From positions 1 to 64,000 of the forward strand of contig CAWHCF010000049.1 of the NCBI GenBank assembly GCA_963827655.1: 64,000 bases of DNA. Reading direction: 5' to 3'. Position 1 is the stretch's first letter. Every line of letters begins with the position of its first letter. The notes under the pieces are model-generated. The model saw only the letters and a list, made by a program, of their open reading frames with translations, made no database searches and was not told the origin of the DNA. Source of the stretch: an uncultured Acidobacteriota bacterium (GTDB lineage Bacteria > Acidobacteriota > UBA6911). Shown piece after piece: positions 1 to 5,422 of the stretch. A program made the translations under genes and the position numbers.

Positions 1-214
1 GAGATAAGAAATTCGGCCGATCTGCGAGGGCGCGCAGTTCTGTGGTTGGAGAGCGGAAACGATCGCGTTCTCAGCCGAGCCCAATGGTGTGTGAATGCAG
101 TCCTACACAGGCATCGAGGCCGATGATCGAGCGGTGGCTGGACGGCAATGGCAGGTGAGCGCACCCGGCCCGCCGTGAGGCAGCTCAGTATCCGGTGCAG
201 AGTATCGCGTGAAC

Positions 215-357
215 TCAGGCCGCTCGACGGTAGTAGTACCGCAGCATGCCGCCGAGTCGCTCGCGGCACGCGATCTCGCCGGTAGTGCAGCCGCACTTCG
301 TCGCCCGCTTCGAATCAGCCGGTTGTCGAGCCCCTGGTGGTTTCGCTCTTCGTGATA
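215..357 (-). pseudogene. 3' fragment of the integrase-core transposase (YHEERNHQGLDNRLI...CRERLGGMLRYYYRRAA*)
   Basis: Typical C-terminal motifs; directly continues ...REFLIH from 3010; two extra single bases shift the frame. Confidence 0.85.
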
Positions 358-839
358 GAAGTCCGCAACACAATACCCCCAAATACGAAGTCCGCGAAGT
401 GCACTATCCCTGGCACCCGCTCTTCGGTCGACGAGTTCATGTTCACGGAGTCCTCCACAAACTCGGCCGGGATCTTTGTCGGTGTTGGCTGCCTGGGCAG
501 GAGGACCGGATTGGTTTCCAGGTGCCGGCATGGATGCTTGATCGAGCGCATTGTGCCCTCATGATCCTCCGAACCGGACCTGCGACAAACCTGCAGGCCC
601 TGCTTGAACTGAGACAGCTCTGCAACAAAATCGTTTTCCCTTCGGTTGTGACGCCAACCGAGCTGCGGCAAGCTACCCCCATTACCAATGGAGGGAATGT
701 CGATGCCAAAGCTCAGCGTCGCCCACGAACTGGCACAGCCCAGCTTGTTCGAATCAGCCCCAAAGCACCCTCGGTGGGAGGACTTACCGATGGACGTTCG
801 CCGGCGAGTCACCCGCCTTCTCTCGGCAACTGCTGTTAA
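357..839 (+). CDS. Small accessory protein of recombinase element (YPWHP...VPAWMLD motif, Y4bD/Y4pK- or DUF5372-like); start codon uncertain in integrated state
   Basis: EVHYPWHPLFGRRVHV and VPAWMLD motifs resemble ORFs found upstream of y4bA-type recombinases. The listed ATG at 246 lies outside the element. Confidence 0.6.
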   Translation, partial: RSPQHNTPKYEVREVHYPWHPLFGRRVHVHGVLHKLGRDLCRCWLPGQEDRIGFQVPAWMLDRAHCALMILRTGPATNLQALLELRQLCNKIVFPSVVTPTELRQATPITNGGNVDAKAQRRPRTGTAQLVRISPKAPSVGGLTDGRSPASHPPSLGNCC

Positions 840-891
840 ACAGGGGCGCCCAGTCACGTCTGTCCAGCGAAGCCGAAGGAGGAAACGATGA
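697..891 (+). CDS. Small hypothetical protein translationally coupled to recombinase
   Basis: GGAGGG RBS at about 690; QPSLF...PRWEDLP motif; ATGA overlap with recombinase start. Confidence 0.6.
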   Translation: MSMPKLSVAHELAQPSLFESAPKHPRWEDLPMDVRRRVTRLLSATAVKQGRPVTSVQRSRRRKR

Positions 892-2984
892 ATGAGAAGA
901 TCACGGACCGGCACTTACAGCGAAAGGCCATGTTGTACATCCGTCAGTCCTCGCCACATCAAGTCGCACACCACCAGGAAGGTCGTCGTCTGCAGTACGC
1001 AATGAGAGAGCGATTGCAGCAGTTGGGTTGGTCGGAGATCGAAGTCATCGATGAGGACCTCGGTCGCTCCGCTTCCGGGAGTGTCGAACGGACGGGCTTC
1101 GAGCGGATGGTGGCCGAAGTCTCTCTGGACCGGGTGGGTGCGGTTGCAGCCCGCGAGGTCTCACGTTTCGCCCGCAACAGTCGGGATTGGCAACAACTGG
1201 TAGAGGTGTGTCGAGTGGTGGATACGTTACTCGTCGATCAAGACGCAATCTATGACCCACGCCGAAGTAATGACCGCCTCCTTTTGGGTTTGAAAGGCAG
1301 CCTCAACGAGTATGAGCTGGATCTGCTTCGACATCGGGCGCAGGAGGCACGACGAGAAAAGGCACTGCGCGGAGAACTCATCGTAGTGCCGCCTGTGGGA
1401 TACGTGCAGGGTGAGGAAGGCGTCTATGAGAAAGATCCGGATCGGCGGGTTCAGCAGGCGATCCGGCAGGTCTTCGAGAAGTTCCTGGAACTGGGTTCCG
1501 TTCGGCAAGTGCTCTTCTGGTTTGTCGAGAACGATCTGCAGCTCCCGACACAACACTACGGGATCAAGGGTTGGCAGATCCGGTGGCGCCGACCAAACTA
1601 CGCAGCGGTGTATCGTGTGTTGACGCATCCCATCTATGCCGGGGCCTATGTCTACGGCATGACACAAACGCAGACGGTTTGGGACCACGGAAGACCTCGC
1701 AAGATCACGCGCTTCCGGCCCCGAGAGAAATGGCTTTCCTTGCTCCCAGACCGACATGAGGGTTATCTTGGCTGGGAGCAATTCCAGGGGATTCAGCAAA
1801 TGATCGCGGACAATGCGAATTGGCCCAAGGGAGAGAGTTGCGGCGCCGTGAAGGGGGGTGCCGCGCTGCTTGCAGGAATACTCCGGTGCCGCCGCTGTGG
1901 CAGAAAGCTGACCGTACACTACACAGGCCGCGAAGAAAATGTGATGCGCTACAACTGCTGCCGTGGCGCGCTGGACAATGGAGTGTCGCGCTGCATCAAC
2001 TTCGGCGGTGCCTTGGTCGATCAAGCGGTCGAGCGCGAAATCCTGAGGGTAATCCGGCCGGCGGCAGTCGAGGCCGCTCTGGAGGCAGCCCGGAACCAGA
2101 CGCAGGAACAGGGCCAGGTGCTGGCGGCACTGCAACTGGAGCTTCAGGCCGCTCGATACACAGCCGAACGGGCAGAGAAACAGTATGACTCAAGTGATCC
2201 TCAAAACCGCCTCGTCGCCGATGAACTGGAGCGGCGCTGGAACCGCGCACTGGAGCGGGTGGCAGAACTGGAACGTCGATTCGAGCAGGAGCAGAAACGA
2301 CGGCAACCACCCTGCTCGCTTGCAGCAGAGGAATTTGAGTCATTGGCTGGAGAGTTGGAGAGGATCTGGAACCATCCGGACACAGATGCTCGGCTGAAGA
2401 AGCGCATCGTACGAACTCTGATCGAAGAGGTTTTAGTGGATGTCCGTGCGGAGGCGGGCGAGATCCTGGTGACGATTCATTGGAAGGGAGGGGTTCATTC
2501 GGAACTCCGAGTGCCGCGGCGACGTCGCGGGCAGAACCGCTTACACACGGCATCGTCCACAGTGGAAGCAGTGCGGTTTCTGACGCGGATACTGTCCGAC
2601 GAGCAGATCGCCGCGTACCTCAATCGCAACGATCTACGCACCGGCAAGGGGAATCGTTGGACAGAGTCAGCAGTCGCCTCGTTGCGCAAGAAACGCAACC
2701 TGCCCAAGTACTCGGCCGAGTGCCGACAGGCGGAGGGTTGGATGACTCTCACGCAAGCCGCCTCGTTTCTCAGTATCAGTACAACCTCCCTGCGCCTGGC
2801 GGTCGAACGTCACGAGATCGAAGCCATCCATCCGCTTCCGGATGGACCATGGATCTTTCAGCGTGAAGACCTCCAACACTCCACGGCAAAGCAGCTGGTC
2901 GAGCGCATTCAACAACGACGACGAGAGGGCACTGAACCAGATTCTCGGCAGCTCCCTCTTGGCATACTCAACAACATAGCGTGA
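888..2984 (+). CDS. Large serine recombinase (resolvase + recombinase + Zn ribbon + C-terminal HTH), y4bA-like
   Basis: YIRQSS catalytic Ser, EDLGRSASG, SRFARN, CRRCG zinc ribbon, coiled coil, WMTLTQAA HTH. Confidence 0.95.
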   Translation: MNEKITDRHLQRKAMLYIRQSSPHQVAHHQEGRRLQYAMRERLQQLGWSEIEVIDEDLGRSASGSVERTGFERMVAEVSLDRVGAVAAREVSRFARNSRDWQQLVEVCRVVDTLLVDQDAIYDPRRSNDRLLLGLKGSLNEYELDLLRHRAQEARREKALRGELIVVPPVGYVQGEEGVYEKDPDRRVQQAIRQVFEKFLELGSVRQVLFWFVENDLQLPTQHYGIKGWQIRWRRPNYAAVYRVLTHPIYAGAYVYGMTQTQTVWDHGRPRKITRFRPREKWLSLLPDRHEGYLGWEQFQGIQQMIADNANWPKGESCGAVKGGAALLAGILRCRRCGRKLTVHYTGREENVMRYNCCRGALDNGVSRCINFGGALVDQAVEREILRVIRPAAVEAALEAARNQTQEQGQVLAALQLELQAARYTAERAEKQYDSSDPQNRLVADELERRWNRALERVAELERRFEQEQKRRQPPCSLAAEEFESLAGELERIWNHPDTDARLKKRIVRTLIEEVLVDVRAEAGEILVTIHWKGGVHSELRVPRRRRGQNRLHTASSTVEAVRFLTRILSDEQIAAYLNRNDLRTGKGNRWTESAVASLRKKRNLPKYSAECRQAEGWMTLTQAASFLSISTTSLRLAVERHEIEAIHPLPDGPWIFQREDLQHSTAKQLVERIQQRRREGTEPDSRQLPLGILNNIA

Positions 2985-3006
2985 GGTGGCATTATGAAGC
3001 GCAGCT

Positions 3007-3978
3007 CTAATGGATGAGGAATTCACGAACGGCGTTCCGCAGAGCCATTTCCCCGAAGAAAACCATTCGGTGCAAGCATTCGTCCTTCACCGTCCGCATG
3101 AACCGTTCGATATGTGGATTCAGATCTGGTGAGCGCGGCGGCAACCGCACAGCCTGTACGCCGGCTTGCTCGAGGATTGACCGGAACGCGTCGGAGAACT
3201 TCGTGTCGCGATCCATCAGCAGGTACTTCTTGCCACGCAGGAATCCATCATCGGCGTCGCTGAGATTGCGCGCGACCTGGAGCATCCAGAGATCGTGAGG
3301 ATTCGCGGTGCACCCGGCAAAGTGCACCCGCCGCGTCGCCAACTCCATGACAAAGAGCAGGTAGAACGTGACTAGCCCGCCCTTTGTCCAGACCTCGATC
3401 GTCGTGAAATCGACGGAGGCCAGGACATCCCAATGGGCCCGGATGAAGCTCTTCCATGTCGACTGGCGCTTTCGATCCGGCGCCGGATCGACGCCATGGG
3501 CCTTTAGAATGCTACCGACCGTGGTGTCGGAGATCTCATGGCCAAGATTAGCCAGCGCGCCCTGGATGCGGTCGTAACCCCAGGTTGGGTTCTCACGGGC
3601 CATGCGCAGTATGAGTTCAACAATCTCGTCTGGAGTGGGCGGCCGCCCGATCTTGTTGCGTCGCCCACTGTAGTTCCATTTGGCAGCCACCAATTCCCGA
3701 TGCCAGCGCAGGATCGTATCCGGAGTTACGATAGTGGCAACCTCTTGCAGCATCTTCCGGCCGAGGATCTTGCCTTTGACTGCCAGACGGCGCCGCTGGT
3801 CATCGTCGAGCAGGATGCGTTTTTTGCCGAGCTTCTCTTTGAGGATCTGGTTTTCCGTGCGCAGGTACTCGATAGCATCCTGCTGCCGGTGATTGATCCA
3901 GCCGGCCAGAATCAGAAGCAACAAATGCCAGGGCTCTAGAAAGGACTTCATATCTCTCCGAATGCCGTGTGAAAACAT
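3007..3978 (-). pseudogene. Integrase-core transposase, 5' part (interrupted)
   Basis: ENPTWGYDRIQG, VDFTT, MDRDTKF, PPRSPDLNPHIERF motifs; premature TAG created by the insertion junction. Confidence 0.9.
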
Positions 3979-4173
3979 GCAGCATCCGGGATCGGTGGGT
4001 GCCTGTCAACCCGTCCGAACAGGGATCGGATGGGTTATGGCAAGATTTGTGGCTTCAGCCACTTGCTGCTCGGCTGAGTTTTTTGACCCTACGGGTATCG
4101 AAGGTCACCCCTTGAGTGTCTCCGCCACGGGGCCGAACGTCAGCGCATTCGCCAGGCGTGCGGCGCGGTATTT

Positions 4174-4440
4174 TCTAGCCACCCCCGGCACAGAGCGTGT
4201 CTTCCGGAACGTCGGTTAGACTCTCGAAGGACAGGTCGTATCCGTCCGGGTCCGAGACCTGGGTGACCCACATGCCGTCCCCAACGAAGGGTCGTTTGGC
4301 GGAAAGGCCGCGCGCTACAAAGTCGCACCATAGGGCCACAGCGTCTTTGCAGATGAAATTGATCGACTACCTATGCCCACCTTCACGTCGGGCAGGTTGC
4401 GGTGAGGTCCCTCCTTCCAGAACTCCTGCAACATGATTTC
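4174..4440 (-). pseudogene. VOC/glyoxalase family protein, 3' fragment, frameshifted
   Basis: MLQEFWKEG...KVG, then RPFVGDGMWVTQVSDPDGYDLSFES in another frame. Confidence 0.65.
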
Positions 4441-4635
4441 GGCAACTCGACCCATCAGTTTGTCGTAGTTCACGCCGTCGAAAAACCTCTCCAGGTCCAG
4501 ATCCACCACCCAGCGGTATCCTTCAGCGATATACTGCTGCGCTTTCCGGACCGCCTGATGCGCTGAGCGCCCAGGGCGAAATCCGTGGCTGTGTTCAGAA
4601 AACGTCCGGTCCCATCGGCTCTGCAGTACCTGCAT
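4441..4635 (-). pseudogene. Group II intron reverse transcriptase internal fragment
   Basis: QVLQ..WD.TFSEHSHGFRPGRSAHQAV...WVVDLDLERFFD.VN.DKLM; no YADD region, no intron ends seen. Confidence 0.9.
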
Positions 4636-4720
4636 CGACCGGAGGTGATGGTCGGCAAGCGACGGGCGGGCGTCCCAAAGGTAGCGACGGCGAGGCGTGA
4701 GCCGACGTCTGAGGCGGACT

Positions 4721-5422
4721 TCATCCATGGAGCGTAACTTTGCCGGTCGCCAGATCGTAGATACCGGATTCGACCCGGAGCTTGGCTGCTTTCAAAGCGT
4801 CGCGAACTACAGTCGAGGATGTGCGCAACAAATTGGCCTGAAACTTGGCGTTGTTTGAAATCGCTTTCCCGAGGTCGCCGCCGGAGTGTTCAACCGAGGA
4901 CTGGATATGCTGGTAAAGCGCGCTGATTTGACCAGGAACGGCGTCGGCCTTCATGGCAGCTTTTACGGCTCCGCAGCCCGTGTGACCGAGCACGAGGAGA
5001 ACCTTGACGCCGAGGGCGACGACGGCGTATTCGAGACTCGCAATGATTTCCGGCGTGACGATATTGCCGGCGACGCGAGTGACAAAGATGTGACCGATGG
5101 TCTGATCAAAAACGAGTTCGATGGGAACGCGCGAGTCGGCACAGGCGAGGACGGCGGCAAAGGGCTCCTGCTTCTCGACTGTGTTTTCCTTGAGAATCCT
5201 TAGGTCGTGCTCGATGGAGGTGAGTTGATTGTTGTCAAAGCGCTCGTTGCCCGTCATGAGTGCACGAAGCGCTGCGTCGGGAGTCAACGGTGTTTGAGCC
5301 AGGAGGGGCCGAGGCAGGGCTACCTCGATTCCGGCCACGGCAGCGCCAGCTACCGCACCTGAGAGCACATTCCTGAGAAACTGTCTTCTAGCGATCGGAT
5401 TGGTGATGGTCTGCTCTGGCAT
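4721..5422 (-). CDS. Beta-class carbonic anhydrase with Tat signal peptide
   Basis: CADSRV and HTGCGA Zn ligands; RRQFL twin-arginine motif; AAAGGAG RBS. Confidence 0.93.
   Translation of the reverse strand: MPEQTITNPIARRQFLRNVLSGAVAGAAVAGIEVALPRPLLAQTPLTPDAALRALMTGNERFDNNQLTSIEHDLRILKENTVEKQEPFAAVLACADSRVPIELVFDQTIGHIFVTRVAGNIVTPEIIASLEYAVVALGVKVLLVLGHTGCGAVKAAMKADAVPGQISALYQHIQSSVEHSGGDLGKAISNNAKFQANLLRTSSTVVRDALKAAKLRVESGIYDLATGKVTLHG

Follow-up and report, generated by a model that had tools for sequence, protein, structure and literature searches.

Near the left end of the 64,000-nucleotide stretch of an uncultured Acidobacteriota bacterium that we analysed (the window; contig CAWHCF010000049.1, positions 1 to 64,000), the transposase gene of an insertion sequence (IS) is interrupted by a shorter segment that encodes a serine recombinase. 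The locus raises the question of what this segment is and how it came to lie in a transposase gene: by chance, as the relaxed target choice proposed in an earlier note on this DNA would have it, or by a preference for such genes. We find that positions 358–3009 very probably hold one member of a family of mobile elements, each about 2.6 kb long, which insert into transposase genes under the direction of a motif and carry three translationally linked genes: two small ones, here called orf1 and orf2, and the recombinase gene. In the following list, attP is the site formed by the joined element ends, attB the target site, and attL and attR the two junctions.

358–3009, plus strand: mobile element, 2652 bp with one TA counted, delimited by the ends of similarity to related copies and by contigs that skip it
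356–357: left TA core (attL), which, read on the minus strand together with base 355, is a Tyr codon of the host transposase
3008–3009: right TA core (attR), placed by reading the junction, by related copies and by empty-site contigs
358–390, plus strand: left end, P′ arm of attP, which also opens the body of orf1; its half-site profile is conserved over about 30 bp
2983–3007, plus strand: right end, P arm of attP, with the ribosome-binding site (RBS) GAGGTGG at 2983–2989, ATG at 2994–2996 and 11 more bases
888–2984, plus strand: large serine recombinase of 698 aa, recognised by Pfam, whose start and the stop of the upstream frames overlap (ATGA)
3010–3978, minus strand: N-terminal 323 codons of the host transposase (HTH_32, rve, rve_3), ending ...EFLIH
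103–357, minus strand: C-terminal part of the host transposase, starting YHEERNHQGLDNRLI, with the conserved attB half-site at about 326–355
212–4080, minus strand: host IS, about 1217 bp without its passenger, from local alignment of its two ends

The TA dinucleotide at 356–357 recurs at 3008–3009 in the window sequence, with the flanks that the earlier note had quoted for its TA-flanked junctions. The minus-strand open reading frame (ORF) 3978–3010 breaks off at ...EFLIH, and the frame downward from 357 reads YHEERNHQGLDNRLI; when 2652 bp are removed, that is the element and one TA, a single transposase frame with rve and rve_3 domains (Pfam) is therefore rejoined. The restored host transposase that the note had described also exists in nature, or something very close to it does: in Logan soil-metagenome contigs position 355 is joined to 3008, with 2652 bp skipped and 2 ambiguous bases, in one contig of run X2 and two contigs of run X9, from two studies. 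These contigs, which were accepted at 90% likeness or more with a side of 36 nt and possibly come from related IS copies, demonstrate an empty site, not an excision event. Among related copies (loci with L numbers), L017, L018, L023 and L027 lose their likeness to the window exactly at 356 and/or at about 3012. The search for other copies and for empty sites that the earlier note had recommended thus found both, the related copies ending at the same boundaries, and its statement that the window itself yields attP and attB is upheld by the junctions, the related copies and the empty-site contigs. One of its counts needs correction: the terminal inverted repeat, given there as 15/22, is 14/22 on recounting, a degree of match equalled by only 6 of 20,000 random 22-mer pairs drawn from the element.

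The host IS has short terminal inverted repeats at 212–222 and 4071–4080 by local alignment, its limits being approximate; the similarity of related copies to the window drops at 212–217, that is, at the host IS end. With the truncated N-terminal piece of 323 codons as query, not the rejoined protein, the NCBIfam IS481 model gives 87.3 bits (the cut-off of NF033577 is 224 bits) and the IS3 model 69.7 bits, both below cut-off. A search of the window's own genome for an intact copy of the host IS found fragments only. The frame of the host transposase stays open for about 36 more codons past the IS end placed at 212 (window 103–211, minus strand).

The recombinase has the Pfam domains Resolvase (PF00239, E 1e-18, residues 15–163), Recombinase (PF07508, E 2e-16, 189–309) and Zn_ribbon_recom (PF13408, E 3e-7, 327–385), followed by a coiled-coil region at about 393–473, recognised by a weak coiled-coil-type match, and by a C-terminal extension of about 215 residues with HTH_17 at 618–664; HTH_17 is present in 25 of 29 members. 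It keeps every invariant column of the family, including Y17, R19 and S21 (21 members including the window). On these domains, these catalytic residues and a 2-bp core at the empty site and at junctions free of target duplication, it is by sequence a large serine recombinase, and the picture of a self-contained element, about 2.65 kb long and centred on such an enzyme, with a 2-bp TA core, stands as first drawn. The C-terminal 215 residues are predicted to fold (predicted local distance difference test, pLDDT, 88.7) into helices, a three-stranded sheet and two helix-turn-helix (HTH) units; a Foldseek comparison of this model returned meaningless rows (root-mean-square deviation about 21 Å, template-modelling score below 0.2), a local MerR-like HTH being the only match.

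The solved structure nearest to the recombinase is SPbeta SprA (E 1e-10), and the best NCBIfam model is XisF, the fdxN element recombinase (NF041201); the score of 104.9 bits lies under the curated cut-off of 375, and the enzyme is not counted as an XisF. Nor does it belong to the TnpX/TndX-type multi-targeting clade, which has DUF4368 and a GA or TT core: DUF4368 was not found at E ≤ 0.01, and the core is TA in 68 of the 71 loci described below. The IS607 family is characterised by a small enzyme with an N-terminal MerR-like HTH, and an enzyme of 698 aa with Recombinase and zinc-ribbon domains and a C-terminal HTH_17 falls outside it. Contigs of runs X1, X2 and X3 skip 99 bases in frame at 2870–2968, in the C-terminal tail of the recombinase, which is a natural length variant.

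Relatives of this recombinase, about 691 aa long, are abundant: 6946 of 8000 scored proteins match at E ≤ 1e-3. By hand count, 85 of the 120 best relatives have a longest contig of 3.6 kb or less, the usual effect of a repeat of about 2.6 kb on short-read assemblies. A scan of species-representative genomes with the single recombinase gave 53 pattern matches and no confirmed one; rerun with alignment A1, the search gave at least 573 matching stretches in these genomes. Matches were also found in 456 plasmid records, mainly of Rhizobium, Sinorhizobium and Bradyrhizobium, and in 9 of 301 sampled genomes of the window's phylum. By record titles the carriers include Pseudomonadota, Acidobacteriota, Planctomycetota, Gemmatimonadota, Verrucomicrobiota, Myxococcota and NC10, among others. 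Family elements measure 2575–2656 bp, and the NCBI annotation of two plasmid copies consists of just a "recombinase family protein" and a 65-aa hypothetical protein.

Two more members, both diverged, occur in the same genome as the window. On contig 19, at 82.9–85.5 kb, lies a second complete one (L112; 2641 bp, TA cores, recombinase 57% identical), at a Y-N-F-V-R-P-H site whose upstream transposase part appears decayed. A third, cut by the contig end, is found on contig 45 at 118859–120829 (L120); its right-end ATG and 11 bases are followed by TC instead of TA, and it may belong to a subgroup with another core. At L024, L043 and L111 the recombinase gene is accompanied, 1.3–1.7 kb away, by another from the same broad family, and the elements therefore cluster in IS-rich patches.

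Whether transposase genes are hit by chance can be judged from a sample of 98 sequences (97 loci and the window) that were chosen on recombinase similarity alone and not on their flanks. The recombinase end was present in 91 of the 98, both element ends could be located by two conserved landmarks in 77, and the two cores were identical in 71; dropped were 7 sequences without the recombinase end, 14 without a locatable left or right end, and 6 with unequal cores. Three of the last (L041, L082 and L097) had ends misplaced by the heuristic and are canonical by eye, and L055, among the 14 without a located end, was recovered likewise. The core is TA/TA in 68 of the 71 loci, AA/AA in 1 and TG/TG in 2, and several repeat contigs of 2.5–2.7 kb terminate exactly at it. 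Read on the opposite strand, 63 of the 71 left flanks begin with [YFH]-x-x-x-R-x-[HN], in one orientation. The insertion point is the first two bases of the aromatic Tyr/Phe/His codon that opens Y-N-x-x-R-P-H-x-x-L-G in rve-type DDE transposases (IS481-like, IS3-like and others), and L041, L055, L082 and L097, which lie outside the 71-locus count, fit the same target by eye.

The right flanks provide the other half of the interrupted genes. There, 33 of 34 ORFs of at least 120 codons match the IS481 model and 32 of 34 the IS3 model at E ≤ 1e-5, and Pfam rve matches the N-terminal transposase part in 29 of the 34. These parts are just 12–51% identical to the window's, and the residues directly preceding the joint form widely differing contexts among the loci. 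The core follows the codon that is cut: TA corresponds to Tyr, AA (TT on the gene strand) to Phe, and TG (CA) to His. Close relatives of the window element (L016, L021, L022 and L028) have an AA core where the target residue is Phe, and L033 and L068 have a TG core where it is His. As read from these junctions, the family does not strike random sites but one conserved codon in the transposase genes that other insertion sequences carry. The relaxed target choice of the earlier note must accordingly be abandoned; the comparison of flanks for a TA core and a target consensus, which it had proposed as a check, brought out both.

Half-site profiles were built from TA-core loci only, excluding L091 and counting each distinct flank once. 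In the left target half-site the information extends over about 30 bp, with gTTG at the core (the Tyr-Asn codons) and TG.GG.CG at −18 to −11 (the Arg-Pro-His codons), and the right target half-site holds almost no information; the little symmetry noted earlier in the target is thus confirmed, conservation being confined to the motif-encoding half-site. Both element arms end in agTTG beside the core, and the TG.GG block of the right arm lies at −23 to −19, 5 bp farther from the core than in the target. Rutherford, Van Duyne and colleagues reportedly described, in 2013, the same 5-bp offset for the zinc-ribbon-domain motif between attP and attB half-sites of large serine integrases. We infer that a recombinase dimer would bind attB chiefly via the motif-encoding half, and the extra C-terminal DNA-binding units of the fold model may help attB recognition.

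Three pairs of copies within single genomes bear on movement. In L104/L105 and in L092/L094, all on megabase contigs, the two elements are 100% identical in flanks only 51–56% alike; in L063/L064 the elements are 99.2% identical, and the flanks are within the same 51–56% range. Elements 82–94% alike likewise occupy different IS families. Because identical elements sit in unrelated flanks within one genome, the family moves and picks the motif anew, and on this comparison of copies its mobility is recent. For a Sinorhizobium meliloti plasmid copy, the empty host IS was not found within the same record. The database protein P0227 (214 aa, from a 4409-bp ENA contig) starts with N-terminal residues that only joined ends should encode; it is possible evidence of a circle or a tandem, and a lead only.

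Upstream of the recombinase lie the two small genes:

357–839, plus strand: orf1 in its integrated form, with a conserved domain at about 357–668, a tail shifted at about 828 and a stop at 837–839
703–891, plus strand: orf2, about 62 aa in relatives, with a GGAGG-type RBS at 690–695, from alignment of 28 relatives
about 828, plus strand: one-base insertion (C) peculiar to the window copy, absent from L016, L018 and L020

The earlier note had reported two small ORFs here. Two conserved genes are indeed present, and it is their boundaries that have to be redrawn: the ORFs were called at 246–839 and 688–891 because the extra base at about 828 distorts both genes, and the first of them is moreover split by the attachment site. 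The extra base was seen by alignment with relatives 81–96% identical, and a contig of run X1 also "left out 1" there; it may be a mutation or an assembly error. Through it the last 21 or so residues of the window's orf2 are replaced and the stop is moved from 893–895 to 889–891. Codon-phase entropy in 67 distinct sequences supports both genes, the most variable phase being that of the orf1 frame from −531 to about −261 and that of the orf2 frame from −171 to −36. The orf2 product has its own ATG and the conserved core Q-L-x-L-F...P-x-W-x-x-L-P...L-L-A-x-L-L.

In orf1 the RBS, the ATG and the first five codons are absent from the left-end body and sit at 2983–3007, at the other end of the element. 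Throughout the family the right end has GAGGTGG, a start codon seven or eight bases on, and then 11 bases before the core; the start is ATG in 60 of 66 distinct elements and GTG in the other 6. When the right end, one core and the left end are joined, an ORF of at least 100 codons runs through the invariant W-H-P motif in 66 of 66 distinct elements; with the joint shifted by 1 or 2 nt as a control, this holds for 4/66 and 2/66. Judged by these reconstructed joints, orf1 is split by the attachment site, and its translation unit would be whole only when the ends are joined. In 56 of 67 sequences no stop interrupts the orf1 frame before the TGA within the ATGA where the recombinase begins, and the orf2 frame stops +5 to +10 into the recombinase gene in 66 of 67. 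Gene callers add between 2 and about 160 N-terminal residues read from the flank to orf1.

The conserved domain of orf1 has at least 3000 representatives at E ≤ 1e-3. DUF5372 (PF17342) matches 3 of 28 orf1 members, with a best E of 4.6e-6, a near-identical relative of the window's orf1 being unmatched, and in the nearest Atlas clusters it is found in 12% and 33% of members. The predicted fold (pLDDT 81) is an SH3/KOW/Tudor-like barrel with helices, for which the best Foldseek hits, chromo/Tudor-like barrels, reach E 0.08. For orf2 there was no credible sequence match in Pfam, NCBIfam or PDB. A model of its complex with recombinase residues 170–698 reaches an interaction prediction score (ipSAE) of 0.64, the best control giving 0.00; of 80 solved complexes 58 attained this mark, against 2 of 110 mismatched pairs. 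At least 89% of contacts are common to the runs, the partner has a pLDDT of at least 59, and the interface comprises residues 384–404 and 483–538, which flank the coiled-coil region. Directionality factors of other serine integrases act at that region. The orf2 product is thus predicted to bind the base of the recombinase coiled coil, and is a candidate directionality factor. In two database proteins, P0190 and P0262, orf1 and orf2 are fused in one reading frame, which suggests that their products act together. No other ORF family, TnpB included, was found within the element by ORF list and Pfam.

Taken together, these parts would work as follows. The recombinase would excise the element as a circle and insert it by attP × attB exchange at the core, reading the Tyr-Asn and Arg-Pro-His codons as an attB half-site. 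The circle alone would have a complete orf1 translation unit, running to the ATGA and coupled there to the recombinase start, and this unit would raise recombinase synthesis for re-insertion; orf2, binding at the base of the coiled coil, would serve as directionality factor. Insertion would sever the C-terminal helix of the transposase and so disable the host IS. A bolder version of this scheme, which we put forward tentatively and consider rather doubtful, is that of a hyperparasitic "IS-homing" family that reads motif codons as DNA, disables the IS it enters and has its direction set by translation. Since rve transposases cannot easily change the motif, such a family would find a landing site in almost any genome or plasmid. 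In the circle, translation of orf1 across the orf2 start would leave the recombinase without orf2, favouring integration; in the integrated form, orf1 would lack its start, and orf2 and recombinase would be made together, favouring excision. If this holds, hosts might gain from a curb on IS expansion.

Several observations weigh against motif-directed insertion by a three-gene element, or against its working in the window. Eight of the 71 loci do not follow the target pattern: three of their flanks are too short to judge, L031 and L033 fit in part, and L056, L064 and L091 show no recognisable transposase site. L064 is inserted in a planctomycete pilin-like DUF1559 gene. L091 is reversed, within an unidentified non-transposase ORF, and L061 is reversed within the transposase motif. 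In Bxb1 and phiC31 the central dinucleotide alone sets polarity. Because the TA core is palindromic, both orientations are expected, yet 63 loci are oriented alike and only L061 and L091 are reversed; one possibility is selection against insertions that are read through from the IS promoter. Short-read metagenome contigs can also mispair flanks, L017 and L018 having the same right flank and different left ones. As to the circle, no "goes back" joint was found in the contigs of four runs, which drop rare forms and in some runs leave parts of the stretch uncovered. The orf1 tail is without amino-acid constraint, VIA-align comparison of the orf1 fold gave at best Z 5.7 (KOW, SH3, Tudor and the retroviral integrase C-terminal domain), a generic barrel that indicates no function, and a scan of the element for sigma-70-like promoters and terminators found nothing, nor was a transcript seen. 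The complex model may echo the solved SPbeta SprA–SprB structures in PDB. Finally, the window copy may be inactive: a frameshift alters both its orf1 tail and the C-terminus of its orf2, the extra C at about 828 may have impaired it, and it is the sole copy of its kind in an 8.2-Mb draft genome.

The exceptional loci lend some colour to the objection that the target is relaxed or near-random and that the transposase location is due to chance, the more as the right target half-site is almost without information and attP and attB of the window's subclade share the TA only. This remains very unlikely to us, given that 63 of 71 loci are cut at the same codon of the same motif and that 33 of 34 flanks match IS481 and 32 of 34 IS3 among loci selected by recombinase only. 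If instead a single ancient insertion into an ancestral IS had produced an element that is now immobile and has spread and diverged as a passenger, one would understand why the window copy is single and frameshifted, and why L039/L040 and L012/L095 are identical elements in identical flanks. As a general account this is refuted by the identical elements of L104/L105 and L092/L094 in differing flanks of one genome; elements 82–94% alike sit in different IS families, and empty sites of the window's own IS exist, so that we regard it as scarcely credible.

Somewhat less remote, and still improbable, is an intervening element kept as a switch that silences the IS and restores the gene on excision, like the skin or fdxN element. 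The reading frame would be exactly restored if the element were excised at the core, and the best NCBIfam match is indeed to the recombinase of the fdxN element. The score of that match, however, is far under its cut-off, there is no sign of regulated excision, and a family that spans many IS families and phyla and takes up new sites within genomes behaves autonomously.

The clostridial Tn4451/Tn4453 (TnpX) and Tn5397 (TndX) have a large serine recombinase as their only transposition enzyme and form an excised circle; in Tn4451 the joined ends create a promoter for tnpX. These elements are larger, with cargo, a GA core and a recombinase of the DUF4368 clade, and are not known to be aimed at transposase genes. 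The present family resembles them in its lone large serine recombinase, its 2-bp core and the logic of its joined ends, and differs in that what the joint would complete is a translation unit (RBS, ATG and five codons), either in place of a promoter or in addition to one. Phage large serine integrases have attP arms longer than attB arms, following the 5-bp rule. With phiC31/gp3, Bxb1/gp47 and SPbeta SprA/SprB the family shares the domain order, a small partner, here predicted at the coiled-coil base, and attP arms that are longer than attB with the motif shifted by 5 bp. In contrast to these systems it has no phage cargo, its core is palindromic, its attP lies inside a gene, its attB is a codon motif common to thousands of genes and not one chromosomal site, and its enzyme is extended at the C-terminus by about 215 aa that include HTH_17.

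IS607, whose small serine recombinase TnpA has an N-terminal MerR-like HTH, usually comes with TnpB and has low target specificity. It too is a minimal insertion element moved by a serine recombinase, whereas here the enzyme has 698 aa and a C-terminal HTH, TnpB is absent and the target is defined. A gene or signal complete only in the circle is known from the circle junctions of IS911 and the IS3 family and from SSV1-type integrases split by attP. The likeness is that a gene complete only in the joined form is taken apart by integration; those systems use DDE transposases or tyrosine integrases, whereas here it is an accessory ORF upstream of a serine recombinase that is split. For the Tn5053/Tn402 "res hunters" and for group II introns in IS, mobile elements are safe and widespread landing sites. 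Another mobile element is the landing site here as well, with the difference that a serine recombinase would read the conserved coding sequence of a protein motif across IS families.

Multi-targeting, in the accessible parts of PMC10083194 (Durrant et al. 2022), means that one 90% recombinase cluster is spread over more than 3 clusters of target genes, defined at 50% identity, and by that rule the present family would count as multi-targeting. The multi-targeting clade described there has DUF4368, a TT core and AT-rich sites, whereas the family here is without DUF4368 and has a TA core. Transposase genes as targets of serine recombinases go unmentioned in the same parts of PMC10083194 and of PMC8989519, supplements aside. 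Our literature searches, which extended neither to supplements nor to subscription journals, turned up no account of an element in which a serine recombinase targets transposase genes, and a literature search for "DUF5372" returned no papers. The family is apparently undescribed; new is the motif-directed insertion into transposase genes, and the type of mechanism resembles that of Tn4451, Tn5397 and the phage serine integrases.

If correct, the finding reaches far beyond the window. To the known minimal mobile elements it would add a large family that comprises thousands of protein clusters, present in soil phyla and on rhizobial and Burkholderiaceae plasmids, and would account for the recurrent contigs of about 2.6 kb that break assemblies. 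It would also reveal a new targeting strategy, a serine recombinase homing to the DNA of a constrained protein motif in other transposable elements. The targets would amount to a series of attB variants supplied by nature, in which one half-site is conserved and the other free and in which palindromic and non-palindromic cores track the Tyr/Phe/His codon; such a series bears on how serine recombinases read DNA, on their polarity and on their use as integration tools. A gene whole only in the excised circle would offer a testable scheme of direction control.

Around the element, an Rfam scan of positions 1–4300 gave no match at E ≤ 0.1. A truncated reverse-transcriptase ORF (4315–4728, minus strand; RVT_1, E 7e-9) lies just outside the host IS end and is probably a group II intron remnant; because this remnant would adjoin the host IS, the contig end appears to be a patch of mobile DNA. 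Beyond it, at 4721–5422 on the minus strand, a beta-class carbonic anhydrase is encoded (Pro_CA, E 1e-33).

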